Shown here piece after piece: positions 12,710 to 60,696 of a stretch of 64,000 bases of DNA. A model generated the notes under the pieces. That model was not told the DNA's origin, ran no database searches, and worked only from the letters and a program-made list of their open reading frames with translations. Every line of letters starts with the position of its first letter. The first letter of the stretch is position 1. The translations under genes were made by a program, and so were the position numbers. This DNA comes from a virus: IMG/VR virus record IMGVR_UViG_3300033233_000027, positions 13,685 through 77,684 of that record, one strand, 5' to 3'.

Positions 12710-12713
12710 TAAA

Positions 12714-17852: not shown

Positions 17853-17858
17853 GGAGGA

Positions 17859-18545: not shown

Positions 18546-18604
18546 AGTAAGGAACAGAGGGGGAACGGGGCGTATCCATGCGCCCCGCCCCGTTCTAATT
18601 TCAT

Positions 18605-20362: not shown

Positions 20363-20375
20363 ACGGAACTTCCAT

Positions 20376-20933: not shown

Positions 20934-20947
20934 GCGAGGAGGAAAAT

Positions 20948-21319
20948 ATGGCAGCAGGAGCCAGTTCGATTTCATGGGGAAAGAAGATACCACTTGGGGC
21001 GGCAAACCAGAAGAAGGCTGGAGAGCCTTTACGGGTCGTCCCGCCCGCGCCTAGTGTTGCACTGATCCCTATGGTTTCACTTGGAACAACAACGCATCCG
21101 CTGACTCTTGGCAAAGCGGAGACTCCGATTCAGGCAGCGCAGATATCGGCTCCTCCCGTTGAGATGGGGGCGGCTCACGGGGAAGCTGTTGTCCTAGAAT
21201 CTGTCTGGACTGTGTCCATCGTTGCTGTTGATCCAAGCGGCAAAAAGTACGTTGCTGAATTCGATGCAGTCTTTCCAGAGGGCTCCTGCTTGACTGCATT
21301 GACTACCAAGAAACAGTAG
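20948..21319 (+). CDS. putative virion protein with repeated LG/MG motifs
   Basis: GAGGAGG RBS; IPLGA, SLGT, TLGK, EMGA. Confidence 0.6.
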   Translation: MAAGASSISWGKKIPLGAANQKKAGEPLRVVPPAPSVALIPMVSLGTTTHPLTLGKAETPIQAAQISAPPVEMGAAHGEAVVLESVWTVSIVAVDPSGKKYVAEFDAVFPEGSCLTALTTKKQ

Positions 21320-21330
21320 AGATTACCGAC

Positions 21331-21633
21331 GTGAATGCGATACTTGGAGCTGATGCCGTGATAGGATTCGCCCAATCCTGGCCTGGATGGGCTGAAAAGG
21401 CCGGCATCTACTCCTTGGCGCATGAGTTGCAATCGGAAATCGATAGGGGCGCGTGGGGGAGGGATGGAGAAAGATCGGCGCGGATAGGGAGGATCCTCGG
21501 GCTCGCAGAAGCGAGGCTTGAGGCGGCAGTTGCGAAAGAAAGTTCGGCTGGTACAGAGCCCTCAATGGAGGGCATGGCAACCATGATGTCAATGCTCAGC
21601 AGCGCAGTCTGGATCTGCGTTCTCGTGCTCTGA
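21331..21633 (+). CDS. tail-anchored protein
   Basis: MNAILGA...; C-terminal hydrophobic helix. Confidence 0.55.
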   Translation: MNAILGADAVIGFAQSWPGWAEKAGIYSLAHELQSEIDRGAWGRDGERSARIGRILGLAEARLEAAVAKESSAGTEPSMEGMATMMSMLSSAVWICVLVL

Positions 21634-21653
21634 TTCGTCTCTGGGGAGGATAC

Positions 21654-21758
21654 ATGAGTAATATGCCTGACGGAGGGATCCCGCTCAAAGAGGGAGCCAC
21701 GCTCGGCTCCTGTTCTACGAAGCGCAAAGATGGGATGAAAGTCTCATCGATGGGCTGA
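21654..21758 (+). CDS. 34-aa peptide (not in ORF track)
   Basis: MSNMPDGGIPLKEGATLGSCSTKRKDGMKVSSMG; GGGGAGG RBS; fills the operon gap. Confidence 0.5.
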   Translation: MSNMPDGGIPLKEGATLGSCSTKRKDGMKVSSMG

Positions 21759-21761
21759 GGG

Positions 21762-22475
21762 ATGGCTATGGCAAGTATCCCCTCCGGTGGAGGTGGACTA
21801 AGGCTTGAGTCGTATGCGGCTCCAAAACAGAGCGTCCAGATTCAGCAGAGGTCGATGGCTAAAAACTCTTCTGAGGACTCGTGCCCAGAATGCGGAATCG
21901 GTAATGGTTGCGGGTGCTTGGCCAAGGTAACTATGGGCAAGGCGAAGTGTGACGGAAAATGGGGGGAGGGCGGGGCAGTACCGGAGATCAGTAGAAAAGT
22001 GCCGATTATAGTTCGAGCCAAGCCGATGCCTGGAACCGAACGGAGCGGAATCAACTACCCTCCGATGGGTCAGCCATCGAAGAAAGGTATCGCGCTAGGA
22101 CAGAATGCTTACGGCTTCAGTCATGCGGCCACAACGGAAGAAGTTACATCGCTCCTGCGGTCCCTAGAAAAGGCACTCGCAGATGTGGCCGCTGCGGCTG
22201 ACGGACAGAACGCCCCAGCTTGTGTCCGCGACATCATGGCGGGATCGTATCTGCTGGCTAAGAAGACCGCAGAAAAGATGCGCAACTTCATCATGGCAAA
22301 TGTGCCAAAAGTAGAGTGGCTATTGACTGATGGTGAGGCGGCAGTTGCTGGTGAAGTCCTGAAATGTGCAGCAACCTTGCAGTCATCCAGCACTAAGATG
22401 GAATCGGATGACACTGGGATGGCTGCTGCCATCGCTCTTGGGCTTGGGGCCCTCGTTCTTTTCTTCGTCGTGTGA
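21762..22475 (+). CDS. tail-anchored putative virion protein
   Basis: TMGK, PMGQ, ALGQ motifs; C-terminal TM. Confidence 0.65.
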   Translation: MAMASIPSGGGGLRLESYAAPKQSVQIQQRSMAKNSSEDSCPECGIGNGCGCLAKVTMGKAKCDGKWGEGGAVPEISRKVPIIVRAKPMPGTERSGINYPPMGQPSKKGIALGQNAYGFSHAATTEEVTSLLRSLEKALADVAAAADGQNAPACVRDIMAGSYLLAKKTAEKMRNFIMANVPKVEWLLTDGEAAVAGEVLKCAATLQSSSTKMESDDTGMAAAIALGLGALVLFFVV

Positions 22476-22789
22476 TGGGAGAAAGTTCCATGGGTCAACA
22501 ACTGCGTCTCATGAATAATAGGATACTTGGACAGGAAGCCCTACGGATCGGTCCTATTCAGATCAAGACGCCAAGCCCAGCCATCTCCGAACTTCAGAAA
22601 GCAGCTGTTCAGGAGTCTACGGACAAAGTAGAGATGGTGACTAGGGTAACATCAGCATTGACGAACCATTTTGAGGAATTGTCTGCGTTCTTGCTCGGAA
22701 CGGACACGACCGCTGAGGTGGTGAAACAGGCGACTCAGAGCCTGACCTCTGCCGTTGACAAGAGAGACGCTGTGATCGGATCTGTCTGA
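22472..22789 (+). CDS. hypothetical protein
   Basis: SMGQ...RILGQ leader; coupled to the previous gene. Confidence 0.55.
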   Translation: MMGESSMGQQLRLMNNRILGQEALRIGPIQIKTPSPAISELQKAAVQESTDKVEMVTRVTSALTNHFEELSAFLLGTDTTAEVVKQATQSLTSAVDKRDAVIGSV

Positions 22790-22824
22790 TGAAAAAAAGC
22801 CTACCGCCCTGACAGCTTGGAGCG

Positions 22825-23091
22825 ATGAAACGTCCAACGGGTTCCGTTGGAGTATCCAAGACTTTCAAGGTGTCCAAGAAGATCAGAGGAGCAGAGGTGT
22901 CCGCTCCTGGCTTGGGAAGGGCCCTAGTTGCGGTAGTGAAGGTATCGAAATATAGATATGTGGTGGCGGCTCCGAAGGAGCTCGGAGGAGCGAAGTCCGT
23001 TCCTGCTGACTCTTTCACGGATGCGCTGCACTGGACCGTGTCGCAAATGAACACAAAGGCGAAGAGAGAGGCGAAGGGGAAAAAACGATGA
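22825..23091 (+). CDS. small basic protein
   Basis: K/R-rich, 88 aa. Confidence 0.55.
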   Translation: MKRPTGSVGVSKTFKVSKKIRGAEVSAPGLGRALVAVVKVSKYRYVVAAPKELGGAKSVPADSFTDALHWTVSQMNTKAKREAKGKKR

Positions 23092-23561
23092 ATCAACCAA
23101 TGCCAATCATGCTCCGTCCGTCCGGTATACGACTTCCAGTCATGCTTCCATCTACGGTAAGGTCCTCAGCTAACCCGATTATCAGGTCCGCAGCGCGGCC
23201 ACCAGCTCTGGCTGGTGTCAAGCTCGGACAGGCATGGAAAGAAGCAGGCCTCCTTGACTTTCCTATATTTGCCATTGCCCGAGATGGCGGTGCCACCATG
23301 TTGGGTCTCTTGGTGGCCATGCAGCATCGGGGTATCAATACAGTCATGGGCGTAATCGGCCTTGTGACTGGAGCTCTCGGTGGGATTGGATTGGCGAATG
23401 ACTTGTGGAAAGTAGCATTTGATAAGCCGCTCATCGGAATGGAATCAAAAGATTTTGGAGCCCTCTTCATCACCGCGGGCGTTGTAGGAGCCCTCGGCTA
23501 TCTCATGTTCGGAAACCCAGGATCGACAGCCTCAAGGGCCCTCAAGAAGGTGACTGCGTGA
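23088..23561 (+). CDS. multi-TM putative virion membrane protein
   Basis: Pro/Arg leader ending VKLGQ, three hydrophobic helices. Confidence 0.65.
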   Translation: MNQPMPIMLRPSGIRLPVMLPSTVRSSANPIIRSAARPPALAGVKLGQAWKEAGLLDFPIFAIARDGGATMLGLLVAMQHRGINTVMGVIGLVTGALGGIGLANDLWKVAFDKPLIGMESKDFGALFITAGVVGALGYLMFGNPGSTASRALKKVTA

Positions 23562-24310
23562 TCCAAAGAACCACCCTGCCGATCCGTCTGGCCAGACCGA
23601 AGATGGCGATGCCGGCTTTGCTTGGGTTCGTTCCCCCGAAATCACATCCACAGTTAGGTGCCGGACTCATCTCTGACCTACTTGGGGTGGATGTCCCAAA
23701 AATAGGAGTAGCGGCGATCTTGGCTGCTGGAGGCGTAGGAGCCTTGTTCGCTACTAAGATACTTCCTGAACCATTCAATACAGTAGCCGCTATCGGTGGC
23801 GTTGGCTTACTGGGTATTTCAATATACGAGTTGATCGATTCCTTTGGTGGTCCATCGGAAGCATCAAAAATACAAAGCGGTGAGACCGTGGATCTCACCA
23901 CGCATCCGAGGGTAACTCCGCAGGAGGTTCAGGATAAAAAGGTAGACGCTCGCTTCATTGAGCCACTTGAGAATGCGAATGTCTTGAAAAATCCGTTCAG
24001 ATCTGGCGCATACGTACCAACGAAGCTGATCGTAACAAATGATACAGGCAGATTGGTCACGGTTCGCCTTCTGTTCCAGGTAGTTGAGGGTGATGGATCT
24101 GTAAACTCCTATCACGAAGACAGGATGGCCGATCAAGGAACAAACACAAGAACATTTGATGCCCCGATAACTTCATACAGTGCTTTCTCGTGGCCACCCT
24201 GGCAACCAACAAGTGCGTGTGTCCAGGTTCGTGCAACGACGATAGAAAATGGGGTGGAGATTAAATATCCAGGTGGATGGGACGATCAGCGGTGCTTCAA
24301 TGTCATATAG
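23558..24310 (+). CDS. membrane protein with C-terminal beta-sandwich
   Basis: PIRLARP...PQLGA leader, two TM helices, Ig-like C-terminus. Confidence 0.65.
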   Translation: MIQRTTLPIRLARPKMAMPALLGFVPPKSHPQLGAGLISDLLGVDVPKIGVAAILAAGGVGALFATKILPEPFNTVAAIGGVGLLGISIYELIDSFGGPSEASKIQSGETVDLTTHPRVTPQEVQDKKVDARFIEPLENANVLKNPFRSGAYVPTKLIVTNDTGRLVTVRLLFQVVEGDGSVNSYHEDRMADQGTNTRTFDAPITSYSAFSWPPWQPTSACVQVRATTIENGVEIKYPGGWDDQRCFNVI

Positions 24311-24343
24311 ACCTAGAGCAGAGCCAATGTTTAGGGTAAACAG

Positions 24344-24616
24344 GTGAAGTTGAAGTTCGTGGATGTCCCTGAAGGCGGCTGCTTCGCATCAGGCAGCGGA
24401 CGGCCATCAAAGAAGTTGGTCGACGGTCGCTGTGCCTCCATCACCAAGAAGGGGAAGCAGCGCATCGTGCGATGCCCGAAGCAGGAGAGGGACGTGCAGA
24501 CAACGACGTGCCCGCTCTCTCTCCTTGGGGCTGGCCTGTCTGGTCCAAAGCGCGGCCTCGTGGAAATCGGACGCGCATTGCCGCATGAGCCTGAAAAGCG
24601 AAAAGGACGGCGATGA
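24344..24616 (+). CDS. small basic Cys-rich protein
   Basis: 90 aa, four Cys, K/R-rich. Confidence 0.55.
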   Translation: MKLKFVDVPEGGCFASGSGRPSKKLVDGRCASITKKGKQRIVRCPKQERDVQTTTCPLSLLGAGLSGPKRGLVEIGRALPHEPEKRKGRR

Positions 24617-25536
24617 GCGATTTCCTGAGAGATCCAGAAGGCCTGATCGATGCCTTGCGGGACTACTCGCCAGATGGCGTTCATGTCCTATCCCCGCTAG
24701 GTGGAGGAACGATCCGCCATCAGATCTATGGTAGGGAATTGGATATCAGCAAAACGCTTCCTGTCGCTTCGTTCCGAGTGGATCTGGACGATCCAATTCC
24801 GTTTGAAGAACACGCCGCAAAACTGAGGCTCTCTCCAGAAAAGATGACCGAGAAAGAACTACGAAAACTCTGGCGGGGCCATGAGCCTCCATTTCCAAGC
24901 GAAGTTCTGGAGCGCGGACTGAGCATGATGGACATCGAAGAGATGTCTTTCAGGAACATGGAATGTCTGGATGACGAAAGACGGATCGTCTGCTATGTCT
25001 TCGGCTGGAGAGACCTTGTCGTGGATCCTCTATTCCCTGGGGCCATGGTGGAATACGAAGAGGGCCGCAGTGGTGTTGCCTCCAAAGGAATATTGCCTGG
25101 AAGAGTCGCTGGAGGTGACAAGTCAATCGTCTTCCTGGAACTGTTCGAGCCGATGACTGCATCGGAAGCTAACCAACTCAATACCGCGCCATCAGCTATT
25201 CAATCTGGATTCTACAGTAAAAAAACTGTAGCGATCGGCGGAAATACATGGGATGCATGGACGGTTTCAGATCCAGATTCCCTCCCAAAGGGAGATAGAG
25301 TTGAGATCGGTGGAGGAGAATACGAGGTCAGGCTGGACGAGCCTCTTGATCTATCCAAGATTGCTGAATTCTGCTCCAAGCACTACCCAGATGAGCCTGC
25401 CTGTGTCTGGCAGTCGCTCCTCTTCTTCGTACTTCCGCTCAACGCCAACAAAGGGGGAAGATTCCATCCGCTTCGTGCTGGTCAGGAAGGTACGTACATG
25501 GATGCGCTGGAATGGGAGATCGGGCACGGATTATGA
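24613..25536 (+). CDS. hypothetical acidic protein
   Basis: 307-aa ORF, ATGA-coupled. Confidence 0.65.
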   Translation: MSDFLRDPEGLIDALRDYSPDGVHVLSPLGGGTIRHQIYGRELDISKTLPVASFRVDLDDPIPFEEHAAKLRLSPEKMTEKELRKLWRGHEPPFPSEVLERGLSMMDIEEMSFRNMECLDDERRIVCYVFGWRDLVVDPLFPGAMVEYEEGRSGVASKGILPGRVAGGDKSIVFLELFEPMTASEANQLNTAPSAIQSGFYSKKTVAIGGNTWDAWTVSDPDSLPKGDRVEIGGGEYEVRLDEPLDLSKIAEFCSKHYPDEPACVWQSLLFFVLPLNANKGGRFHPLRAGQEGTYMDALEWEIGHGL

Positions 25537-25594
25537 GAGAGGAATTCTTTGAGCGAGCGGGGGTGCGTGGTATCATCCCCGCTGGGAGAGACGC

Positions 25595-25966
25595 ATGAAG
25601 GTATCGGCTAGGCTTGGCACAGGTGGATGCCCCTCTGGGAAGATTCGCAGGAAGGCCTACACGACGCGTAAGGGCGTTCATGTCAAGTCATCATGCGTTC
25701 CTGACAAGGGAACGAAAGGAAAGGGTCCAAAAACTCTTCCAACACCGAGGCCTGGCTCGCTCGAGGGCTGGAAGAAGGATCTCCCATCAACGGAGCGCCA
25801 CGCCATCCTGCACGATATCACCAAGCGCGAAGGGTGCGGCGTAGCCATAAAAAAGCTGACGCTTCTCCAGAACATCACGGCTGATGCGGCAACGAAGCGC
25901 ACAGCCAAGACAGACAAGAAGTGGCTGAGAGGCCAGGGATTCTGCGAGCTTGCGAGGGGAAAATGA
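25595..25966 (+). CDS. small basic protein (possible nucleoid/core protein)
   Basis: ARLGT then CPSGKIRRKAYTTRKG...SCVPDKG...RHAIL...KKL...DKKWLR. Confidence 0.6.
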   Translation: MKVSARLGTGGCPSGKIRRKAYTTRKGVHVKSSCVPDKGTKGKGPKTLPTPRPGSLEGWKKDLPSTERHAILHDITKREGCGVAIKKLTLLQNITADAATKRTAKTDKKWLRGQGFCELARGK

Positions 25967-26220
25967 AAACGAAGCTCGGGGCCATAGAACTGGTGGAACT
26001 CGGTCGCGCCTCAAAGCGCGTCTGCGCTAGGGCAGTCAAGAGCGGTAAGCGGTGGGTCGTGCGCACCTCAGATGCGGGTTCCGGTGCCGGCAGGAACTGG
26101 ATTGAGGCTCCGTGCCTTCGCAGCAAGAAGAAGTCGAAGGCGCGTACGTTCCTGACTCGCTCCATCGCAGAAGCCCATGCGCGAAAGTGCGGAATCATGC
26201 TGTGCCGAAAAGGAAAATGA
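25963..26220 (+). CDS. small basic protein
   Basis: MKTKLGAIELVELGR; ATGA-coupled. Confidence 0.6.
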   Translation: MKTKLGAIELVELGRASKRVCARAVKSGKRWVVRTSDAGSGAGRNWIEAPCLRSKKKSKARTFLTRSIAEAHARKCGIMLCRKGK

Positions 26221-26262
26221 GTCGGTAATATACTTTTGACTAGGACGAAAGGGGGGATAGGA

Positions 26263-27042
26263 ATGCAAGCGAGACCACTGGGGTATTATGGGCGTATCAA
26301 GCCTTCACCAATCAGGATCCCGCAAGGTGCCCGCTCAGCGGCACTTGGAGCTGCGATCATTCTGGATCAGCAACTTGCCGCAAGCGTAATCCAGCGATGG
26401 AATGGGGCGAATCAGGGAAAGAACGAAGCCCTAGCTGTACTCACTAACTTCCCGTACGATACAGCTCCAGTAGGTTCATATTCGCAACTGGATGGGGCCG
26501 TTACCAACTTTGAGACGCTCAACGGATCGGCTGGAATCGTAAGCCTTGTAGGAAAAGCTACCCTAGTTCTTCAAAACAACGCACCCTCCTTCACGTCACA
26601 GGAAGAACTACAGGCTCTTAATGCGCTGGAGAACATGGGGCATCTGCTACAGAAAGCAGCTCAGGCGCTGATGAGTATTCCTCCTCCGACCCCAGCCCAA
26701 CCGCCACAAGGCATTCTCCTGTCGGCCGCAGAGGCTAATGGATACAACGCTGCCGTGCAGTCGCTTCTCGAGGCTATCGGACTGCTTGGAACCCCAGCCA
26801 TCTTGGTGCCGCATAAGGCTGCATTGCAGGCGCTTTCTGGCAACTTGCAGACATCCCCAGTCTATGTGCCACCCAACTTTGCCTCCACAATCCAGGCGGC
26901 TTCTGATGCGGTTACGACTGAGAGGAATAGACAGGCTGCGTTGGCCCAAACAGGACAGACTCCAGTTGCTGGAGATCAGACCGCGCTCTACGTTGGCGGT
27001 GGCGTTGCGCTTACTGCCTTGCTCCTTATTGCGTTTGCCTAA
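26263..27042 (+). CDS. tail-anchored putative virion protein
   Basis: PIRIP...AALGA leader; domain shared with 27070; C-terminal TM. Confidence 0.7.
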   Translation: MQARPLGYYGRIKPSPIRIPQGARSAALGAAIILDQQLAASVIQRWNGANQGKNEALAVLTNFPYDTAPVGSYSQLDGAVTNFETLNGSAGIVSLVGKATLVLQNNAPSFTSQEELQALNALENMGHLLQKAAQALMSIPPPTPAQPPQGILLSAAEANGYNAAVQSLLEAIGLLGTPAILVPHKAALQALSGNLQTSPVYVPPNFASTIQAASDAVTTERNRQAALAQTGQTPVAGDQTALYVGGGVALTALLLIAFA

Positions 27043-27069
27043 ACCTATGATGCGGGCTATGCCCGCAAT

Positions 27070-27744
27070 ATGAATTGGAGAATAGCGATGAATCAGCCGA
27101 TCAGACTCGCACGACAATTTTCTCCCATCGGAAAGTCGATCCGCCTTGCTGGTGCCCGTCTTGGGAATCCAGATACATTCCTGTCGGATTCTCAGGCATC
27201 TGCGGTCAGGCAGGGCGCACAGACGCTTCTGCAAGCGATCGGGGCGTTGGGAAATCCAGCTAGTCTTTCTTCCTGGAAAAACTGGCTTGAGACCTTCTCG
27301 TACAGGCTTCAGCAGCCACCAGTTTATGTGGCAGATGACTACACCTCCACTCTCCAGGGGGCGTCCGATGCAATTGCGGCAGAGAACGCTAAGCAGGGTG
27401 GCCAGGTCCCGACGATGTTCCTCTACGCCGAAGAGGCGGCTCCATGGTCTGAGGCAGCTAAAGCGATTCTAGCTGAGATGGGAAATATCGGTAATCCAGC
27501 ATCCTTGGCCCAGCATAGGAGTAATCTGGAATCCCTAGTCTCGCAGTTCTCAGATGTCAAGCAGGATACCACGGGTCGAAATTATGTCGTGGTTCGATCT
27601 GATTATGGCCAGAGGATTGAAAACGCCAGAGCTGCTACGCAGCAGGCAAAGGCTTCTCCAACCGCCTCAACTGGTCCATCTACGGTCGAAGTGGCTGGTG
27701 TAATTGGAGTGATCGGCCTCGGCCTCTGGCTCGCGTTGGGTTAA
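27070..27744 (+). CDS. tail-anchored putative virion protein with internal duplication
   Basis: PIRLARQ...ARLGN leader; two GNPASL repeats; C-terminal TM. Confidence 0.7.
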   Translation: MNWRIAMNQPIRLARQFSPIGKSIRLAGARLGNPDTFLSDSQASAVRQGAQTLLQAIGALGNPASLSSWKNWLETFSYRLQQPPVYVADDYTSTLQGASDAIAAENAKQGGQVPTMFLYAEEAAPWSEAAKAILAEMGNIGNPASLAQHRSNLESLVSQFSDVKQDTTGRNYVVVRSDYGQRIENARAATQQAKASPTASTGPSTVEVAGVIGVIGLGLWLALG

Positions 27745-28749: not shown

Positions 28750-29028
28750 CTAGATCACGACCCCAGCCACGATTTCAGGAAAGACCACAAGATGATCTCC
28801 ATCGGCCACCCCAGCCTGCGGCAAAGTCTGCGTTTCAAGCAGACGTCGCCCCTTTTCCTTGTGGTCTAGGCTGTAGACCATCGGGGAGCCATCTGGAGAA
28901 ACGGCTGGGAGCAACATCTTCGTGATGATGTTCGGGAGGATCTTGGACACGGGGACGGAATCCGAGATCCTCGCTTTGACGCTCTTAGCACCCGTCTGAT
29001 CCAGAAAAATAACCATTCGGTCTGCCAT
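28750..29028 (-). CDS. ubiquitin-like beta-grasp protein (EsaB/YukD-like)
   Basis: ...ISDSVPVSKILPNIITKM.LP...YSLDHK..GRRL...QTL.QAGVADGDHL..FPEIVAG-VVI; AAGGAGG RBS. Confidence 0.75.
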   Translation of the reverse strand: MADRMVIFLDQTGAKSVKARISDSVPVSKILPNIITKMLLPAVSPDGSPMVYSLDHKEKGRRLLETQTLPQAGVADGDHLVVFPEIVAGVVI

Positions 29029-29076
29029 GGCATCCTCCTTCTGTTGCACAGAATGCGTACTGTGCGTACAACCGAA

Positions 29077-48620: not shown

Positions 48621-49493
48621 CTAGATGAAGTCGTGGGTAAGGACAGCCGTAAGGTTGGAATCAACCAGGGACGAACTTTCAAGGAACATACTCACCAGAT
48701 CAGTGTCAACAACTGGAACGATATCAGCAAACGAAAATACCCCCGTGGTTGCGGCTGGAATTGCCAGGCTAGCTTGAGTAACGCCATTAACCCTAACACG
48801 AATTGTCCCAGAGACTGTCGCCGTGTTTATTGCTACGAAGGCACGGAAGTTTTTCAGGTTTCCAGCCCGATTGGTAGGCCATTGGAACTTGGATTCAACC
48901 AGATCTCCGCTGGCGCCGGTTACTCCAGTGACCGTAGTTAAGTAGCTGTTTGTCGTGGTCACAGGGAATGGAGGCTTCGTGCCGATATTGACCGTGGTGG
49001 CCCCGCTATAGATGACAGGACCGTCGCCACCGCCTGTAGTTCCAGGTCCCTGTACGCCCTGAATTCCCTGCGCTCCTTGGGATCCCTGTGTGCCTTGGGC
49101 ACCTTGGCTTCCTTGGGCTCCTTGTGGACCAAGATCACCCTGGGCACCTTGCGGGCCAAGATCCCCCTGAGCGCCCTGAGATCCTTCTGGCCCTTGCGTT
49201 CCCTGTGGCCCAAGATCGCCTTGTGCGCCTTGCGGACCAAGATCTCCCTGATTGCCTTGTGATCCTTCGGGTCCTTGTATCCCCTGCGGTCCAAAATCGC
49301 CTTGTGCGCCTTGCGGACCAAGATCTCCCTGATTGCCTTGTGATCCTTCGGGTCCTTGTACTCCTTGTGGACCTCCAGACGGGCCTTGGTTGCCTTGATT
49401 GCCTGAAATACCTGGAGTACCTTGCGCACCGCGGCCACCACCGCCGATCCTGAAGCCGCCACCGCCTACAGGAATTGGAAAACCAGGGCCCAT
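48621..49493 (-). CDS. collagen-like fibre protein A
   Basis: About 40 G-X-Y (mostly G-X-Q) triplets plus C-terminal beta head. Confidence 0.9.
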
Positions 49494-49597: not shown

Positions 49598-50458
49598 TCA
49601 ACTCGGAATGAACCTAGAAGACATCTGAATACTTGTCACGCTCCCCGCCCCAGCAGCCGTCGCATCCATGACAAAGCTGAATTTGTCGTTAGCCGAGACA
49701 GCAATATCCGTGGTGATAGACAGGTCGCCGTCTGTCCCTGCGGGATACGTCACGGTCAAGGCCGTCGCCACGCCGTTCAAGAAGACAGTAACGACAAAAT
49801 CGCCGCTTAACGTGTTGTCGCCAGCTACGATAGAGACAAGGAGATCCTTGAGCGTGCCCATTGGGAGAGGGATTCGGTAACGTGAATATGGAAAGGTTTG
49901 GAGACCAAAACCGCCATCAAAAAGTGTCCCCTCTACTACTGAACCTGAACTGATAGTTGATACTACGGCAAGAAGCGGAATGATCCCGCCGCCACCGCCT
50001 GTAGTGCCAGGTCCCTGTACGCCCTGAATTCCCTGCGCTCCTTGGGATCCCTGTGCGCCTTGGGCACCTTGGCTCCCTTGGGCTCCTTGCGGACCAAGAT
50101 CACCCTGAGCACCTTGCGGGCCAAGATCCCCCTGAGCGCCCTGAGATCCTTCTGGCCCTTGCGTTCCCTGTGGCCCAAGATCGCCTTGTGCGCCTTGCGG
50201 ACCAAGATCTCCCTGATTGCCTTGTGACCCTTCCGGTCCTTGTATCCCCTGCGGTCCAAGATCGCCTTGTGCGCCTTGTGGACCAAGATCTCCCTGATTG
50301 CCTTGTGATCCTTCGGGTCCTTGTACTCCTTGTGGACCTCCAGACGGGCCTTGGTTGCCTTGATTGCCTGAAATACCTGGAGTACCTTGCGCCCCGCGGC
50401 CACCACCGCCGATCCTGAAGCCGCCACCGCCTACAGGAATTGGAAAACCAGGTCGCAT
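49598..50458 (-). CDS. collagen-like fibre protein B
   Basis: N-terminus and collagen nearly identical to protein A; different head. Confidence 0.9.
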
Positions 50459-51815: not shown

Positions 51816-52511
51816 TTAATCTCCACTCGGCCACTTCCGGTTGTATATATCCATGGATGCGCGGGAAAGCGCCGCTATGTCAGGTCTGGTTCGGTAAGTG
51901 GATGTGCAGTTTCTCTCATGCCGAACAACGCAGGTCTCATCTATCCAGAGATCCCACCCTTGCAGCGTTGCTCGCCGGCACCAATCTGAATCATCATAGC
52001 CATATCCAGTAAAGCGTTCATCCAGTAGACCGATCGAAGAAATAGCTCTACGTGGGAGATAGACGCAGACGAAGCAGAGCATTCCGAATTCTTGCCTCAA
52101 CGCATTTGGGGAGTGGAGTCTCTGGTTCGGATTCCCGACTATGCCATCTATTACTGGAGATATCGCAGCTATGTTCGGTCGTTGAGACCACCGTTCATGG
52201 AGTTTGCTGAATCCGCCTATAGTTGCGAGTTCTGCATCGTCGTTCATGAGTACGACATCGTCTTTTCCGCATGCGGCGATACCGAGGTTCGCGTTGCGGG
52301 CAAAGATGAATGGTTTCTTGCCCTCGACCCAGCGAACTGGAAGATCACCACAACTGGCTCGCGCTCCGTCATCTACTACTACGATACGATCCGGTGTCAG
52401 ACCTGGTTCGTTGGCGATTAGAGACCGAATGCATCCACGTAGATTCGTTGTCTTGGCAGATAAGATGACGACACTCCAACGAGTCACGCCTTCATCTCCA
52501 CCGATCTGCAT
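51816..52511 (-). CDS. glycosyltransferase family 2
   Basis: VVVDDG, FARNANLG, MNDD, LDERFTGYGYDDSDWC. Confidence 0.9.
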   Translation of the reverse strand: MQIGGDEGVTRWSVVILSAKTTNLRGCIRSLIANEPGLTPDRIVVVDDGARASCGDLPVRWVEGKKPFIFARNANLGIAACGKDDVVLMNDDAELATIGGFSKLHERWSQRPNIAAISPVIDGIVGNPNQRLHSPNALRQEFGMLCFVCVYLPRRAISSIGLLDERFTGYGYDDSDWCRRATLQGWDLWIDETCVVRHERNCTSTYRTRPDIAALSRASMDIYNRKWPSGD

Positions 52512-52792: not shown

Positions 52793-53056
52793 CTATCCGA
52801 TGACGATTGGGGGTTTCTGTGGAGGAGCAGACTTCAGCCAGTACCTGAACCTACCCTTTCCCTCTCGCCGGCATTCTATATCGTATCCAGAGGCCCTGAG
52901 TTCCGATACCACAGTGCTGGCAGAGCAGATCCTAGCCTTCTCCATCAGTTCCCAGGTAGTGGCCCCAGACAAGCCAGCCTCGTATAAGGCGTAGAGCAGC
53001 CTCTTCAGCCTATCAGAAGTGTCGGGGTTCGCCTTGTGCATTCCATTCTTGGCCAT
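52793..53056 (-). CDS. winged-HTH protein
   Basis: ATTWEL...STVVSELRASGYDI...YWL; GGAGG RBS. Confidence 0.7.
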   Translation of the reverse strand: MAKNGMHKANPDTSDRLKRLLYALYEAGLSGATTWELMEKARICSASTVVSELRASGYDIECRREGKGRFRYWLKSAPPQKPPIVIG

Positions 53057-53231: not shown

Positions 53232-53293
53232 GTACGAAGCGGATTACATTTGCATGAATGCCTTGTTTCACGCCTACGTAATCCAACAAGTCC

Positions 53294-53382
53294 CGTGAGC
53301 CGTGGCGACACTGGAGGGATATGTCCCGCGCTGGTGAGGCGCGGTAGTCGGATGCGTGTCGCCACGGGTCAAGAAACTCACG
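53294..53382 (-). ncRNA. structured RNA motif, copy A
   Basis: CCGTGGCGACA/TGTCGCCACGG stem with inner CCGCGC/GCGCGG hairpin; homologous to 54305-54392. Confidence 0.55.
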
Positions 53383-53700: not shown

Positions 53701-54294
53701 CTACGGATAACTGGATGAGTCTCGGTTCTCGCTGGACCGTTCCCTCTCGTAGTCGGTTCGGTCCATGAGGTTCATGAAGTCATCCAAGGCGTACTTGCCG
53801 CCAAGGAATCGATAGACAAGGTTCTGTGCCTTCTTCCGATCTACAAGCCTCGGTTGATTCAGCAGCCATTGCAGATCAAGAATATGCTTCGGTTCGCGAG
53901 CAGCCAGTTTCATCGTAGCTAGGTGCTCGGGGCTTACGATCTGGATTCCATCGGAGGTCGTTGACGTATTCTCCAGAGCATGATCGTACAAGTCCTTGTA
54001 CTCATCATTCCGAACGATAAAGTCCACCTTGGCTCCATCGGCTGCTATGAAGGCTTCACCCCCGAAATTGATCGGTCCAAGTCTGGTGAGTCCTAGTTCT
54101 GGTACGCCCGCAACTACGAAGTCTACATCCTTCGTCAATCTGGGCGAACCGAATGCCTGCATAGCAACCCCGCCAGCAAGTGCCGCAACTGATCCTGTTG
54201 ATTCTGACCATTCACGGACTGTACGGAGTATAGAGTTGATCTGCTCTGTCGTGATGAATCTCTCTTTTGGAACCATTGCGTATACTCCGTTCAT
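53701..54294 (-). CDS. Pol-beta-superfamily nucleotidyltransferase (AbiEii/MenT-like)
   Basis: LAGGVAM...PRLTKDVDF...KVDF...LATMKL.A.EPKH..DL; AAGGAG RBS. Confidence 0.8.
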   Translation of the reverse strand: MNGVYAMVPKERFITTEQINSILRTVREWSESTGSVAALAGGVAMQAFGSPRLTKDVDFVVAGVPELGLTRLGPINFGGEAFIAADGAKVDFIVRNDEYKDLYDHALENTSTTSDGIQIVSPEHLATMKLAAREPKHILDLQWLLNQPRLVDRKKAQNLVYRFLGGKYALDDFMNLMDRTDYERERSSENRDSSSYP

Positions 54295-54304
54295 ACGGGC
54301 TCCT

Positions 54305-54445
54305 TGATCCATGGCGACATCATGGTGACATGGTCTGCGTTGCTGAGGCGCAGCAGTCGGTGAGATGTCGCCACGGGTCGAGAAACTCATCAGTTCACTA
54401 CGCCTCAGCTACTGGAGCCTACCCCGTTTGCGATACTCAGGTCAA
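54305..54445 (-). ncRNA. promoter plus structured RNA motif, copy B (leader of the nucleotidyltransferase)
   Basis: TTGACC-18-TAGGCT; 5' GCTGAGGCGTAG complementary to apical CTGCGCCTCAGC. Confidence 0.6.
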
Positions 54446-54458: not shown

Positions 54459-54536
54459 TCAGTAGCTACTGCCCGTGAACCAGCCCATGGGCTCCAACGT
54501 ACAGGTAAAATGACTCCACGACATCTCTCCAGCCAT
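54459..54536 (-). CDS. 25-aa MAGEMSW peptide (not in ORF track)
   Basis: MAGEMSWSHFTCTLEPMGWFTGSSY; AGGAG RBS. Confidence 0.5.
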   Translation of the reverse strand: MAGEMSWSHFTCTLEPMGWFTGSSY

Positions 54537-54578
54537 GGATCAGACTCCTAGGTCACGAATGTTCTATTCTACGACGGA

Positions 54579-55061
54579 TCAGTCTCCAACCGACTCAACC
54601 CACTCCTCATCGCCACCATAGTAGGCCAGCCAAGAGATGGCGGCATTCACGATAGCTTCCTGCTGCGCATCTGGATTCATTCGAGCTACATCTATCGCAC
54701 CCACCCTACTATCATCTCTGGAATAGGATCCGCGCTGTCGATTAGTTGGGTTTAGCAGAACTACAAGATCTACAGACGCGCTGCGTTTTGATACCGGCCA
54801 AGTTCTATAGCTCTCTCGGTGCGCTTCGTCATCTGGTTCATCTGCAACCATCCATTCGTGGATTGTCGCGCTGCCTCCTCCAACTTCTACCTCAAGCCCA
54901 CTATTTGGATTCTCTTCACTGGATTGCGCGTAGTAGCGAAAGCTGATATCAGCCAACGCGTCTTCTGTCCATTCCTCAAGTTGTTCTGGCTGAGGACGCG
55001 CTGGGTATGGATCAGTACGCTTTTCCCTGCGACGTGGATCCCAACTCATCTCTCGGGCCAT
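54579..55061 (-). CDS. MAxEMxW-family acidic protein
   Basis: Starts MAREMSWDP. Confidence 0.7.
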   Translation of the reverse strand: MAREMSWDPRRREKRTDPYPARPQPEQLEEWTEDALADISFRYYAQSSEENPNSGLEVEVGGGSATIHEWMVADEPDDEAHRESYRTWPVSKRSASVDLVVLLNPTNRQRGSYSRDDSRVGAIDVARMNPDAQQEAIVNAAISWLAYYGGDEEWVESVGD

Positions 55062-55102
55062 GCGTCAAAGCCCCCTATTCACGAATGATTGCTTCTATGA
55101 CT

Positions 55103-55471
55103 TTACCCCGTCATCGTACCAGAGTTCCAGAGCCAAAGTGCATGATCGACACTCGCCGCATCCGTCCACTCCTCTTCTCCATCACCGAAAATAACTCCAG
55201 CTCTTTTTGCTCTAGGAAAGAATGCTAGGGTAGCTTGGAACTCTGGCATATCTCTTGGGTGTTTCGGAGTAATCCGATAAATCACGGCTTCATATCCGCG
55301 CTTGATTGACTCAGATATGTTGAAGCCAAAATCGTCCGTCATGTACGTTTCGCCTATCTCAGAGTGTGCCAGACTCGGATCAACGCTCGTTTCTTTCAGA
55401 GTGAATGGGGTAGTGAATTCTGGATTTCGATCCCGATATCGACCTTGGCCCCAATTCATCTCCCCCGCCAT
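55103..55471 (-). CDS. MAxEMxW-family protein
   Basis: Starts MAGEMNWGQ. Confidence 0.7.
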   Translation of the reverse strand: MAGEMNWGQGRYRDRNPEFTTPFTLKETSVDPSLAHSEIGETYMTDDFGFNISESIKRGYEAVIYRITPKHPRDMPEFQATLAFFPRAKRAGVIFGDGEEEWTDAASVDHALWLWNSGTMTG

Positions 55472-55504
55472 CCGTCACCTTTCTGTTCTTCTGTGAATCC
55501 ATTT

Positions 55505-55807
55505 CTAAAATGGAACCACGGTAAAAGTGTAGTCTTCTCCAAAGAGACTAATCTTGAACGACTCCATGTGTCTGGAATGAACAACGTTGTCGCGCATAAG
55601 GTCTGCCCTCAAACTATACATGGCTTGCCAGAGGCCCTCTGCCTCTTGGTGATCTTGAGGACCACCGTGAGCTGGATCAACTTGGACAAGTATTGCGATC
55701 GCGTTCAACGCGACGATCCGTTCATCAACTCTTCCCTCTTCAGTACGTCCATGGATCGGGCTGTGTGCCCGATACTTCCTTGACTGCCAAGCCATCTCAC
55801 CCGCCAT
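55505..55807 (-). CDS. MAxEMxW-family protein
   Basis: Starts MAGEMAWQS. Confidence 0.7.
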   Translation of the reverse strand: MAGEMAWQSRKYRAHSPIHGRTEEGRVDERIVALNAIAILVQVDPAHGGPQDHQEAEGLWQAMYSLRADLMRDNVVHSRHMESFKISLFGEDYTFTVVPF

Positions 55808-55832
55808 CCATCACCTTTCCGTTCTTATGTGA

Positions 55833-56177
55833 TTAATTACGCCCAACTTTGGCAATGATTCTTATTGCTTCGTCGAGTTTCTCAGCCATTGGCGTACCCG
55901 GTTCTACAGGCCAATGCTCCTCCAATTCGTACACTATGGAGGCAAGAGAATCTAATAGATCTGGTGAGGCCGCGATGAGGCGAGCGTTGGCACGAGCCCG
56001 CTCCCTGTCACTTGCCCAGGCTTCTGCGGCGATTTTGTCGCCAGAATCTGCGTTATCTGCCCAGATTGCGATACGCCATGTGTCGCCATCACGGAATTCG
56101 TGTACTGAGTTACCGAGATGCCACGGCTTAGGGGTGATGTTATACCTTGTAGGATCCCAACTCATCTCTTCTGCCAT
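55833..56177 (-). CDS. MAxEMxW-family protein
   Basis: Starts MAEEMSWDP; body has the TPKPW...ANARLIAASPDLL phage motif. Confidence 0.7.
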   Translation of the reverse strand: MAEEMSWDPTRYNITPKPWHLGNSVHEFRDGDTWRIAIWADNADSGDKIAAEAWASDRERARANARLIAASPDLLDSLASIVYELEEHWPVEPGTPMAEKLDEAIRIIAKVGRN

Positions 56178-56212
56178 CGCATCTCCCTATTCGTATTTCC
56201 GCTCTTTAGCGA

Positions 56213-56497
56213 CTAGTTGGTCTGTTCCATGTACGTCTTTACCAAGGAATCCATCGCCTTCCTAGCACTGGGGAATGGTATTACGAACTGGTCGCTCTTG
56301 TCCTCGCTGTAGATGACGATGTCGCTCGGCTCATTCAATTCGTCTGGTGTTTCAGCTATGCCATGGGAGATTAGATACGCCTCCCAGCCATCGCGTAGTT
56401 TCTTATAGACGAAGTCATTGTTTCCTCCAGTCCCAATCCAGCCAAGCCCAACCTTGTGCGCATAGTTCAGGATCTCTTCAGTGATATTCGGCTCCAT
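56213..56497 (-). CDS. hypothetical protein
   Basis: GAGGAGG RBS; TGGNND motif. Confidence 0.6.
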   Translation of the reverse strand: MEPNITEEILNYAHKVGLGWIGTGGNNDFVYKKLRDGWEAYLISHGIAETPDELNEPSDIVIYSEDKSDQFVIPFPSARKAMDSLVKTYMEQTN

Positions 56498-56535: not shown

Positions 56536-59500
56536 CTACGCCTTCGCTGTCGTAGCTAGAAACTCTCTCTGCCCGCTCGTCTCCGCATTGTACTGTAGCG
56601 TTGGCTTCCTAGTGCAGACCCACCGCTCTCCTCCCTTGACCCACCGATTGAAGAATTCCCAATCGTGACTATAGCCTGCCTCCTGGCGATCCTTCCACCA
56701 GCCGTACTTCAAGATGAGATCCTTCTGGTGAAGAATGCATGAGGTGTCGATCCCCTGATGCTTCGGCTCAGTAAACTTCATGTCTACCTCTCCGACCAGC
56801 ATAGAGGAGAATCCGAATGTCGCCCCATTACGCCGCATTGCGTCATAGATGCTTGAGATGTGGTCTGGCGTGATGGCGTTATCGTCGTCACAATAGGCGA
56901 TGAACTCTCCAGCAGCCATCATGATGCCGAAGTTTCTCGGCACAGCTCCGCCTGCTCCATGATTCTTCGGAAGATTTAATGCTCGTACCCGTGGAGACTC
57001 TGGCGAATCGAGCGTTGGGTCTCTATCTCCTACAACGACGATCTCAAGGTTCGCGTAGTCCTGGGCTAGAGCGGAACTCACGGCCCGCTTCAGAAGCTCT
57101 GGGCGCTTGTAGGTAGGAATCACAACGGAAACCAGGGGCCCTAGTGTAAGTTTCTCAATCCTTGGATCGTCCATTCTATCGTAGTCAAGGATCGGCCACT
57201 CCTTGCTGATCTCTTTCCTATACTGTGCATCTGTAAAGTACGGTTCTTCCACCGCCAGAGTATCGTATAGGGTTGAGGCTCCCTGTCGGCGACCATCTTC
57301 GTGAAGCGCAAGGATGTGATTGATCTTTGCGTTCACAATGATCGCCTGCTCCTGTGAGCCGACAAGTTTTTCGTGAACCTTGAAGATCCACTGGATCTGT
57401 GCGCGATTACGCCAGAGGAATGGCTTTGGGACGAAGTCACGCACCGATCCATCTCCATAGGTAGCCTGGAGAGGAGCAAGGAAGATGTCTTTCTCAGTAC
57501 GGAATACCATCTCCTTCATGTGCTGGACGGTATTGCTATCCAGTCTCTCGTCAGGATCGAGCATGATGATCCAGTCCGCTCCTTGTCCGAACTGTGTGAT
57601 GGCCAGATTTCTTGCCTGAGCGAAGTTCGCGAATGCTCCACGCTCAACTCGCACACCGATGGATGTTGCGATCTCCACCGTTCTGTCCTTGGAGCCAGTG
57701 TCGAATAGGCACCAATCTCGCGTGACGGTTGAGAACTGCTCAAAGTAGCCCCTGATCCCCGCCTCTTCGTTCTTGGAGATCGCGATGACTCGGATCTTCG
57801 GGTGCTTCTGTCGGAAGATCTCTCCATTCCGACTCATGACAGTCTGCACATCCTCCCTGAGTGCCTTGAATGTCGCATGGCGTTCGTGCTCGACGTACGT
57901 TCCTCCGACGACTGTGCATCCGTAGCCAAGAGAACTGGCTCGAGCACAGATGTCATCATCCTCGTAGGTATCAAGCCTAGGATCAAACCCCCTAAGCGTC
58001 CGATACAGATCAGTAGGAAGCATCACGCATACCCCGACGACCATCTCAGGATGCAGACTCTCGTTCGGAACCTGTGACCGTTCACGGTCCCCCTGGGGTG
58101 GTTTTGCCCTATTGCAATATGGCGCCACCAATGGATACTTTTCACTTATCGCTGCGAATAGCTTCTTTGGCGTGTCGTCTACAAAGCAACTGTCGTCATT
58201 CATGATGCAGATGACTTTGCGTGTAGCCTCCATGGCTCCGCGGTTACAACCAGCCGCAAACCGGAGATTCATCTCAAGCCGTACAACCTTGTCCGCTAGT
58301 TTCATGGCTTCAGGCAGTGGCTCGCACCCGTTGGCAACGAGAATGATCTCCGACCTAGGAGAGAATTCCCTGATGGACTTCAGGCAGCGGATGGCGAGCT
58401 CGCTTGGAACTGCCGTTGGTACGACATAGCTGATCTGAGCCGTATCCTCTGGAATCCTGATAACTCCGAGGCCATTGCAGTTCTTGCGAAGTTCTATTTG
58501 AAGGCCTCTGGCTGAGGTGAACTCAATAGCAGCCTTCTTCACGTCTGGGAAACTCTCCGTGTCGTGCATAAGGATCAATCCGCCTGGTCGAACGCGTGGA
58601 GCCCAGGTTGCCAATTCCTTCTTCACCCTTGCGTACGTATGCTCAGAGTCGATGAAGAGGACATCAAGCTGTTCCGGTAGACCAGCCTTCTGAAGGCTGT
58701 CCACATCAGCGGAATCGCATGCCACGAACTGCCAGAGAGGATGGCCTCGCCACGCGTCAGCGTAGGATGGATCCACGTCGACGCTCCAGACTTTTCCTCC
58801 ACGCCTCTCCACGCCTTTCAGGAGAGCTTCTGTGCTTGAGCCTTCTCGAGATCCAAGTTCCAGCACAATACCTTTTGCGGAAGCCTCAATCTCTGGGAGA
58901 TGTTCGTGGATGTTTGGGTAATCCCTCCGCTCAGGACCAGTACGGGTCAGCGTTCGGAGCAGACGCATCGTATCCAGAAGCCCATCCATGCGACCGAAGC
59001 CCTCATGGGCGAGGAGTGGAGCATCCTGTGGCAGCGTGAAGCATTTCCCACCAGATGCCTTTGTCTTCTTGCAGGCCAGCCAATCGTATCCATGCCATAC
59101 GAACGGTTTTCCAGGCACATCCCAAGACCACGCCTGATCCACGGCGACAAGGCAGAAGCCATCAAGCCAAGATACTTCCTTGGCCTCCTTGGAGAGTTCC
59201 ACTGTCTTGGAAGCGGTTCCGTCCTTGAAGGACTGGATATATCTGCCGGCGTGCGGTTTCGATTCCCACCATGGGCCATTGTCCAGAGCGTCAGGAGCCG
59301 CACTACCACACGGGCCGTGTAGGCCAGGCTGTAGCTTGGCGACCACACTGACGAACGCAGGAAAATCGTTGAATAGTACGTCATCGTGGACGTAGACGAT
59401 CCTGCGCCTATCCTTCCAGAACAGACGGCCTTCTTCGTAGGCTTCAAGGATTCCCTTTGCGCCTACCTTGACGAAGACATCCTGGTTAGGAAGTCTGCCC

Positions 59501-60696
59501 TTGATCCTTTCAGCATCCTTCTCGCTTCTGGATGCGATCACGAAGCATGGCTTATCTGAGGTGGCTTCAGCCACAGGGACTTGCCCCTGTGTCCCAATTC
59601 TCTTGTCATGATGCTTCTTGAACTCTGCCGCACGATAGTTCTGGCCTAGGGCTAAATGGTCTTGGATCGACTTGTTGCGCGTGAAGGTGGTATTTTGGTA
59701 GCCATCTCTAAAACGGTATGCGTACAAAAATTTGTCGATATGATGGCATTTGGAGTAGAGGTAAAATCTTGAGTAGACGTCCCAATCATCTGCCACGGGT
59801 AAGGATGGGTTATAGCCGCCAAGTTCAAACAGTGTCTTGGCCCGGTAGGCCCTTACATGGTTGGGCCCAACAGTTAGGGTAAAGGCGTTCTGCTCATTCC
59901 AGTTCTGTCCCCAACTGCCGTAAATGTCGTGATTGATGCATTCGAGCCACCTCTTCCCCCGGTACTCTATCTCTCGATACTTGTCCTGGAAATGCTCAAA
60001 TGGAAACCGATGGGCACTGCCATCCTCAAAGAAGTTTGCGCAATTGGAGTAGACCATGCCTATTTCAGGGTCGGAGTCGAACGCCTTTCGTATTTCTTCC
60101 AGGGCGAAATCAGTCAGAAAATCGTCATGGTCTAATTCAACTAGGTAGGCACCCTTTGACAGCCTTGTCGCGAGATCCTTTACGCCCCCGATTTTACCGA
60201 TGCTTTTCCCACTACGGAATGGCCGTACCCGAATGTCTTCCTTGGCGAACGCTTCTAATCGCTCCCAAGTTCCATCCGTGGAGTGATCGTCGACGCAAAC
60301 CCATTCCCAATTCTTGTAGGTCTGTTCGATCAACGATTGGTATGCCTCCCGCAGATAGTCTCCGGTGTTATATGTACCCGTGTAAACGGAGATCAATGGA
60401 TTCTGCTTCTGGAACTGATGCTCTCCCCAGAGATTGGAGGAATAGCAGCTCTCAATGGCTTGTATGACCGCATCAACCTTCGCATTCGGATCAACATGAA
60501 TCCATTTCTTGCGGATATCGAATGCGCACCCCATCAGGACTCCTGGGGTGAACGTAGAAGTCACCAAAACGTCTGGCTGAAAAGTGGCTATCGTTGAGAA
60601 GATGGAACTCGTCTTGTCCAGATGTCTTGCTTCATAGTCCTTGGGAAGCTGAAACGCTTTCCCAATAGTCAACACCTTCACGCCAGCAGTGGTCAC
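56536..60696 (-). CDS. multidomain glycosyltransferase (about five GT2/GT-A domains plus class I SAM methyltransferase)
   Basis: DDHSTD/LDHDD; HDDV; ELGSREGSS...FIDSEH; MNDD; KNEE...LDPDE; VVIPTYKRP...CDDD. Confidence 0.9.
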   Translation of the reverse strand: MTTAGVKVLTIGKAFQLPKDYEARHLDKTSSIFSTIATFQPDVLVTSTFTPGVLMGCAFDIRKKWIHVDPNAKVDAVIQAIESCYSSNLWGEHQFQKQNPLISVYTGTYNTGDYLREAYQSLIEQTYKNWEWVCVDDHSTDGTWERLEAFAKEDIRVRPFRSGKSIGKIGGVKDLATRLSKGAYLVELDHDDFLTDFALEEIRKAFDSDPEIGMVYSNCANFFEDGSAHRFPFEHFQDKYREIEYRGKRWLECINHDIYGSWGQNWNEQNAFTLTVGPNHVRAYRAKTLFELGGYNPSLPVADDWDVYSRFYLYSKCHHIDKFLYAYRFRDGYQNTTFTRNKSIQDHLALGQNYRAAEFKKHHDKRIGTQGQVPVAEATSDKPCFVIASRSEKDAERIKGRLPNQDVFVKVGAKGILEAYEEGRLFWKDRRRIVYVHDDVLFNDFPAFVSVVAKLQPGLHGPCGSAAPDALDNGPWWESKPHAGRYIQSFKDGTASKTVELSKEAKEVSWLDGFCLVAVDQAWSWDVPGKPFVWHGYDWLACKKTKASGGKCFTLPQDAPLLAHEGFGRMDGLLDTMRLLRTLTRTGPERRDYPNIHEHLPEIEASAKGIVLELGSREGSSTEALLKGVERRGGKVWSVDVDPSYADAWRGHPLWQFVACDSADVDSLQKAGLPEQLDVLFIDSEHTYARVKKELATWAPRVRPGGLILMHDTESFPDVKKAAIEFTSARGLQIELRKNCNGLGVIRIPEDTAQISYVVPTAVPSELAIRCLKSIREFSPRSEIILVANGCEPLPEAMKLADKVVRLEMNLRFAAGCNRGAMEATRKVICIMNDDSCFVDDTPKKLFAAISEKYPLVAPYCNRAKPPQGDRERSQVPNESLHPEMVVGVCVMLPTDLYRTLRGFDPRLDTYEDDDICARASSLGYGCTVVGGTYVEHERHATFKALREDVQTVMSRNGEIFRQKHPKIRVIAISKNEEAGIRGYFEQFSTVTRDWCLFDTGSKDRTVEIATSIGVRVERGAFANFAQARNLAITQFGQGADWIIMLDPDERLDSNTVQHMKEMVFRTEKDIFLAPLQATYGDGSVRDFVPKPFLWRNRAQIQWIFKVHEKLVGSQEQAIIVNAKINHILALHEDGRRQGASTLYDTLAVEEPYFTDAQYRKEISKEWPILDYDRMDDPRIEKLTLGPLVSVVIPTYKRPELLKRAVSSALAQDYANLEIVVVGDRDPTLDSPESPRVRALNLPKNHGAGGAVPRNFGIMMAAGEFIAYCDDDNAITPDHISSIYDAMRRNGATFGFSSMLVGEVDMKFTEPKHQGIDTSCILHQKDLILKYGWWKDRQEAGYSHDWEFFNRWVKGGERWVCTRKPTLQYNAETSGQREFLATTAKA

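Follow-up and report, generated by a model that had tools for sequence, protein, structure and literature searches.

We describe a short N-terminal peptide, with the consensus M-A-G-E-M-x-W-x-P-x-[R/K], that is common to nine otherwise dissimilar proteins of one uncultivated virus. Five of the nine genes lie in a 64-kb stretch of DNA, referred to here as the window (positions 13685-77684 of the IMG/VR virus record IMGVR_UViG_3300033233_000027). The full record is 77,684 bp, has terminal repeats identical over 120 bp and is complete by the CheckV estimate. The only public run with the virus sequence is a sediment metagenome, probably its source, and no RNA dataset holding the virus was found among the public runs. 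The reading we favour, at about an even chance, is that one partner reads the peptide, or tag, as an N-terminal address or docking signal that is intrinsically disordered and specific to this lineage. An earlier note on this DNA had proposed a modular cassette system in which such a tag serves packaging, export or docking. The core of that proposal, one tag on exchangeable and unrelated cargo, stands because the tagged genes proved neither to be divergent full-length paralogues nor to be conserved at the nucleotide level only; a role of the tag in packaging, export or docking is putative.

The tag is found at nine gene starts

Five open reading frames (ORFs) on the minus strand of the window, with starts at 56177, 55807, 55471, 55061 and 54536, begin with MA[E/G/R]EMxW. 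All five had been listed in the earlier note, including an ORF of only 25 aa at 54459-54536 that we also find. The pattern ATGGCNNNNGARATGNNNTGG matches these five sites and no others in the window. Its chance expectation is 0.06 from dinucleotide shuffles, and none of 100 shuffles reached five matches. The bodies behind the tag had been called mostly acidic and mutually dissimilar, and this is borne out by pI values of 4.5-5.8 and by BLASTP comparisons that are all at E > 1 without the first 12 residues. The array and the gene before it are as follows (window coordinates).

56213..56497, minus strand: untagged gene, 94 aa, between a 1386-aa glycosyltransferase and the array
55833..56177, minus strand: tagged gene A, 114 aa, start MAEEMSWDPTRY; body phrog_1273 / PF27050
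55505..55807, minus strand: tagged gene B, 100 aa, start MAGEMAWQSRKY; orphan body
55103..55471, minus strand: tagged gene C, 122 aa, start MAGEMNWGQGRY; orphan body
54579..55061, minus strand: tagged gene D, 160 aa, start MAREMSWDPRRR
54459..54536, minus strand: tag head E, 25 aa, with the tag followed by 18 further codons and a stop codon; tag-scan score 34 bits

The genes of the array are separated by gaps of 25-42 nt and are each preceded by a purine-rich ribosome-binding site. Sites resembling promoters or terminators were not found within the array, and an Rfam search of the region found a tRNA-Pro alone. As the 94-aa gene of the same operon is untagged, the tag is not simply common to every small operon gene.

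The complete genome encodes nine tagged genes, all on the minus strand. The four outside the window, and a tenth gene with part of the tag, are given here in genome coordinates.

Start 12315, minus strand: tagged gene, 163 aa, tag reading MAGEMKWSPGKT, pI 4.5
11144-11731, minus strand: partial-tag gene, 195 aa, very acidic (pI 4.3), start MKWNPKTK; 1.9 kb before the window start
Start 6109, minus strand: tagged gene, 78 aa, MAGELSW
Start 4907, minus strand: tagged gene, 89 aa
Start 4194, minus strand: tagged gene, 185 aa

A weight matrix made from the nine N-termini was run over every ATG, GTG and TTG on both strands. The nine sites scored 30-35 bits and the rest of the genome at most 8 bits. 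In a de novo search for N-terminal peptides common to the ORFs of the genome, the only real gene starts recovered were the tag set and one pair of collagen-like paralogues. The consensus is followed by a basic stretch rich in Pro and Arg, and two of the tags lack the Gly at position 3. The tenth gene, which starts at 11731 directly downstream of the 163-aa gene, has the tag without its first four residues (MAGE).

Codon choice points to selection on the peptide

Conservation at the nucleotide level only, as part of a translation-initiation region, is not what the tags display. They differ mainly at third codon positions, with synonymous changes at every degenerate conserved position. Ala2 is encoded by GCT (five), GCG (two), GCA (one) and GCC (one), Gly3 by GGA (four), GGG (two) and GGT (one), Ser6 by AGT (four) and TCG (one), and Pro9 by CCT (three), CCA (two) and CCG (one). 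The Arg residues at positions 10-11 use AGG, AGA, CGA, CGC and CGT and so draw on both the AGR and CGN families. The sequences upstream of most copies are unlike each other except for a Shine-Dalgarno-like run. Together, the synonymous third-position changes and the unlike upstream sequences argue for selection on the peptide. The tag is also kept in a relative of the 185-aa protein with a body only 40% identical.

All tagged genes have a purine-rich, Shine-Dalgarno-like run, mostly 4-9 nt before the first ATG. We call this run plus the tag a head. An example is the head of gene A, with equivalents before B, C, D and E:

56142..56215, minus strand (window): ribosome-binding site GGGAG and the first 12 codons of gene A

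The heads of B and C have 87% identity across 46 nt, of which 25 nt are leader, and those of A and D have 88% across 26 nt. The head of C and the gene at genome position 4907 have the upstream sequence GATTCACAG...GAAAGGTGA in common. The earlier note had reported two pairs of matching upstream sequences. The first was recovered, with AAGAACRGAAAGGTGAYGG found twice (before 55807 and 55471); the second pair shares GAATAGGG only and not the full 10-mer. Some heads, ribosome-binding site and tag together, have clearly been copied as DNA between genes. This suggests that the tag is gained by recombination of a gene behind an existing head.

Several other explanations of the heads were rejected. 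An integron-like recombination site is not supported, as there is no inverted-repeat structure, the nucleotide identity is only 69-88% and no integrase was seen. A start at the second ATG was rejected because every copy retains the first ATG, which in most is normally spaced from a Shine-Dalgarno-like run. The nine N-termini, on inspection, also spoke against a Sec, Tat or lipoprotein signal peptide, since the sequence after the tag is polar and rich in Pro and Arg and has no hydrophobic stretch.

The tagged bodies fall into separate families

By sequence comparison the tagged bodies are not paralogues, and the four that could be placed belong to four separate families. Divergence of full-length paralogues, which the earlier note had named as a finding that would speak against it, is contradicted by the lack of any pairwise similarity and by other members of the four families that are without the full tag. 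Pfam, PHROG and NCBIfam returned nothing for eight of the nine tagged proteins, those of genes B and C included. Among cultured phages and plasmids (blastn and tblastn) there was one weak match to gene A and none to the other tagged genes; gene B likewise has nothing in cultured phages.

Residues 14-110 of the gene A protein match positions 8-96 of the 103 positions of phrog_1273 (E 6.2e-12). PF27050 is precomputed for this protein and for its only metagenomic homologue, P0002 (60% identity). P0002 has the untagged start MERKHTPGPW and aligns from residue 14. Gene D also has a single homologue, P0171, which is 45% identical over residues 33-160 and begins with MTIWKKRWWPEG, without MAxEM.

The 185-aa protein belongs to a large family with 625 cluster representatives at E <= 1e-3. 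In alignments of 19 and of 68 members nearly all start 2-3 residues before a conserved QPxWK, so the first 24 residues of the tagged protein are an add-on. One member, P0074, begins with MAGEMKWGRGYR (MAGEMKW) ahead of a body that is 40% identical. Another, P0004, begins with MAPHKQEWSPRDY, which judged by its residues is possibly a diverged version of the tag. The family domain is also found in two larger metagenomic proteins. In P0104 (391 aa) it is C-terminal and follows an N-terminal region with a weak likeness to WXG100 (E 2e-4, which misses the Pfam cut-off), and in P0025 (1436 aa) it is at the N-terminus. These architectures indicate that the domain is also a module of bigger proteins.

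The 163-aa protein has 15 homologues; 13 were examined, and in ten of them the start is at M-TVQELA. P0155, from a contig of 86 kb, starts with MAGSMRW and is 65% identical to the 163-aa protein in the alignment, while P0156 starts with MRWGPRKK. As the ESM Atlas entry of protein C starts at Met5, gene callers can miss the first ATG and the DNA of the homologue loci was checked directly. In 16 IMG/VR loci with homologues of the 163-aa protein there was no tag-like start and no other common N-terminal peptide within 10 kb, and in five whole IMG/VR records with such homologues there was no MAxxxMxW start. Four of these viruses were compared with the present virus over the whole genome. They range from 33 to 66% GC and have essentially only the 163-aa gene in common with it. 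Untagged loci in unrelated viruses thus show the 163-aa body to be a horizontally mobile accessory gene that is tagged in this lineage only.

The tag is rare outside this genome

The exact tag DNA pattern had 18 single matches in IMG/VR, all out of frame or internal and consistent with chance, and a pattern for the MAPHKQEW variant had none there. Of 90 stretches that matched an extended pattern in Joint Genome Institute (JGI) metagenome contigs, none was at a credible gene start or accompanied by a second tag. The same extended pattern gave 52 stretches in 185,579 species genomes (one per prokaryotic species), with no credible tagged gene and no second tag. The bearers of the tag beyond this genome are the metagenomic proteins P0074, P0155 and probably P0156. 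Close relatives of the virus were absent from IMG/VR when P0074, P0004 and a 752-aa protein of the virus were used as queries.

The tag is predicted to be disordered

An AlphaFold2 model of the 185-aa protein, made with the 68-sequence alignment, has a mean predicted local distance difference test (pLDDT) score of 91.8. Residues 1-20 are coil (pLDDT 63-69). The fold starts near residue 30 and is mostly beta, with helices at the C-terminus. The AlphaFold model of the 163-aa protein (mean pLDDT 81.6) has a helical fold, with residues 1-7 below 50. In both models the tag is predicted to be disordered ahead of a well-folded body. One model being beta-rich and the other helical, the two bodies are not the same domain.

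Neither model had a convincing fold match in the Protein Data Bank (PDB) or in BFVD, and the ESM Atlas was uninformative. The best VIA-align match of the 163-aa model is 1s7z_A, the T7 Ocr protein, with Z 5.2 and an rmsd of 3.5 A over 92 residues, which is below the level that the tool regards as meaningful for helical proteins. The match is 1.2 Z above the next row, and the 163-aa protein has no sequence match to any PDB chain. The modelled resemblance to Ocr is a lead and not a finding. The only features that would point to an anti-defence cargo, as the earlier note had imagined it, are the acidity of the proteins and this weak resemblance.

Genomic setting of the tagged genes

Head E is probably what is left of a tagged gene. 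Just downstream of it is an 88-nt element that is present in two copies on the minus strand (window 53293-53380 and 54302-54389; 74% identical). Both copies form long predicted hairpins (-46 and -43.6 kcal/mol; z -5.1 and -4.1) and have no Rfam match. They flank a cassette of about 1 kb with an AbiEii-like nucleotidyltransferase ORF, a 63-aa ORF and the tRNA-Pro. As the upstream hairpin directly follows head E, insertion of the cassette may have cut a tagged gene. The AbiEii-like ORF (229 aa; window 53701-54390, minus strand) has the motif of AbiEii toxin-type nucleotidyltransferases over residues 69-100 only (Pfam E 9e-7). Its annotated ATG is within the hairpin element, and its true start is probably further downstream. 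Near it is an 87-aa winged-helix protein (HTH_39; window 52793-53056, minus strand). From their family matches the two could be a viral type IV toxin-antitoxin or abortive-infection pair.

Glycosylation appears to be a major investment of this virus. The genes concerned are:

Window 56536-60696, minus strand: glycosyltransferase, 1386 aa, four GT2 domains and a CmcI-like methyltransferase
Genome 12452-13453, minus strand: fusion of GT2 and TPR repeats, 334 aa, directly upstream of the 163-aa tagged gene
Window 51816-52511: GT2, 231 aa
Window 48621-49493 and 49598-50458: collagen-like fibre genes, interspersed with GT2 genes

A DnaB-like helicase, a DnaD-like loader and a DNA methyltransferase are also recognisable in the genome. 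The largest plus-strand ORFs (752, 585 and 307 aa) have no significant PHROG or Pfam match. Six-frame hidden Markov model (HMM) searches of the complete genome at E <= 1 found no S77 (PF03420) or S78 (PF04586) prohead protease, no HK97 capsid (PF05065) and no Terminase_6N (PF03237); very divergent homologues would escape them. To judge from such sequence searches, the head genes of a tailed phage are not recognisable in this virus, nor are its other structural genes.

A 99-aa protein (window 28753-29049, minus strand) matches YukD (E 1.4e-13), the family of ubiquitin-like proteins that belongs to WXG100/type VII secretion loci. The ORFs scanned included no recognisable E1, E2 or secretion gene. 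On the plus strand, an operon at window 17055-27744 encodes several proteins with basic, Pro/Arg-rich leaders ending in [L/M]-G-[Q/A/N] (...YQMGQ, ...YRLGQ, ...VKLGQ, ...PQLGA and ...ARLGN). Two adjacent genes of this operon have the common start MKMQ[KR].R[LM]L. These leaders are a second, distinct class of N-terminal leader in the same virus. Cleavage of the tag by the [LM]-G leader system of this structural operon was considered and rejected, as Ala precedes Gly3 in the tag and the Gly is missing in two tags.

A possible address or docking peptide

A tag that is kept while bodies diverge to 40% identity, and that stands ahead of unrelated proteins, suggests a label with a common reader. According to the reading that the tag is an address or docking peptide, one common partner, encoded by the virus or by its host, would recognise all tagged proteins through the peptide, and they would thereby be handled as a group. 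The sub-case we favour is that the tag recruits cargo to the assembling particle, so that the cargo would travel with the genome. Virion loading may be the most likely use of an address tag, and even so we consider it rather unlikely on its own. It is fairly unlikely, in our view, that the virus has independently evolved a T4-like "internal protein" strategy in full, with a peptide that loads swappable, horizontally acquired small acidic proteins, DNA mimics perhaps among them, so that they are delivered along with the genome, and with new cargo recombined behind the head. The GT2-TPR enzyme, the multi-GT2 protein before the array and the YukD-type protein are speculative candidates for the reader.

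Several points weigh against an address or docking peptide. No reader of the tag was found. The tag is known from one genome and two or three metagenomic proteins only. As heads have been copied as DNA, the pairs A/D and B/C owe some of their likeness to recent common descent. No fold match above Z 5.2 in the PDB or BFVD hints at the functions of the bodies. As for virion loading, neither a T4-type (S77) or HK97-type (S78) prohead protease nor an HK97 capsid or Terminase_6N was found in the six-frame search, and the machinery that reads the T4 tag is thus not evident. The cargo is also acidic, whereas the internal proteins of T-even phages are described as basic (PMC9026906).

Alternatively, a modifying enzyme encoded by the virus, such as a neighbouring glycosyltransferase, might recognise the tag and serve many substrates in the manner of the maturases of ribosomally synthesized and post-translationally modified peptides (RiPPs), whose substrates have shared leaders. 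The gene for a GT2 fused to TPR repeats, a peptide-binding module, is directly upstream of the 163-aa tagged gene, the 1386-aa protein with four GT2 domains and a methyltransferase is encoded just upstream of the array, and another GT2 gene is 2 kb downstream. However, the collagen-like fibre proteins of the same region are more obvious substrates for these glycosyltransferases, and four of the genes (6109, 4907, 4194 and the partial one at 11731) adjoin no recognised enzyme. Neither a radical-SAM enzyme nor a peptidase or other maturase was found among the neighbours scanned, and adjacency known from a single genome is weak evidence. We consider this role distinctly unlikely, with the other two functional alternatives weaker still. 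A degron or timing signal, through which a protease or adaptor removes (or stabilises) the accessory proteins together at one stage of infection, would suit a peptide that is disordered, exposed and found at the N-terminus of many unrelated proteins. Short terminal peptides guide ClpXP, ClpAP/ClpS and Lon to their substrates. By inspection the tag is presumably unlike the described ClpX N-motifs or N-end-rule residues, and the neighbourhood of the tagged genes has no recognised protease gene, making a degron quite improbable.

We give as little credence to the view that the head is mainly a translation-initiation module that sets or coordinates expression, with a peptide that has no partner. 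In its favour, ribosome-binding site and tag are copied together as DNA, as in the 46 nt of B and C at 87% identity, and GGNGAG stands before a second in-frame ATG at codon 5. This ATG was taken as the start of protein C by one gene caller, and two proteins begin at the equivalent of Met5, with MKWNP in this genome and MRWGP in P0156. It is mainly the codon evidence that makes a purely translational role a weaker alternative than a modifying enzyme: third positions vary and Ser and Arg switch codon families. Conservation also reaches W7, P9 and R/K11, past any known effect on initiation, the upstream sequences differ in most copies apart from the Shine-Dalgarno-like run, and the tag is kept in relatives with bodies down to 40% identity. 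That the tagged genes are fast-diverging full-length paralogues keeping only the N-terminus would account for tandem genes of similar size that are all acidic. This explanation is very improbable and already contradicted, as it is at odds with the lack of pairwise similarity, with four families in which other members lack the full tag and with two predicted folds that differ, one beta-rich and one helical.

If one partner does read the tag, it would be a compact and transferable sorting code that marks accessory proteins acting together. A small recombination at the 5' end would then bring newly acquired genes into a functional set. A fusion of the tag to a reporter would in that case be a handle for finding both the reader and the compartment. 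Taken with comparable tags of other phages, this one suggests that phage proteomes make recurrent use of short terminal address peptides, a feature that is under-described.

Comparison with known systems

The internal proteins of phage T4 are diverse and share only a 10-residue capsid-targeting sequence; ten N-terminal residues are enough for incorporation into the prohead core and can be transferred to other proteins (PMC3012670, PMC9026906). The T4 propeptide is cleaved at L/I-x-E by gp21 (PMC9026906). The set of internal-protein cargo varies between related T-even phages (PMC3012670, PMC9026906). Like the targeting sequences of T4 IPI, IPII and IPIII, the tag is an N-terminal peptide of about ten residues on diverse small proteins. 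Unlike in T4, the nine sequences have no conserved L/I-x-E behind the tag, and the only invariant Glu is residue 4, preceded by A-G/E/R. The tag presumably has no resemblance to the T4 targeting sequence itself. With no L/I-x-E, no S77 or S78 protease, no HK97 capsid and no Terminase_6N, the analogy to T4 is functional only.

Fewer than 30 N-terminal residues of phage P1 DarB suffice for capsid targeting, and this cargo counteracts host defence (PMC9024508). The P1 signal has been described for one protein, as against one motif on nine proteins here, and the two have no evident sequence relation. The N-terminal tag MNRYDIALGKKPPP of other uncultivated phages differs from MAGEMxWxPxR in sequence and in the viruses that carry it. 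Encapsulin cargo-loading peptides and the encapsulation peptides of bacterial microcompartments are likewise short terminal peptides on unrelated proteins that are read by one shell protein. The encapsulin peptides are usually C-terminal, those of microcompartments are usually amphipathic helices and both belong to cellular compartments and not to viruses, whereas the tag described here is a predicted coil at the N-terminus of viral proteins.

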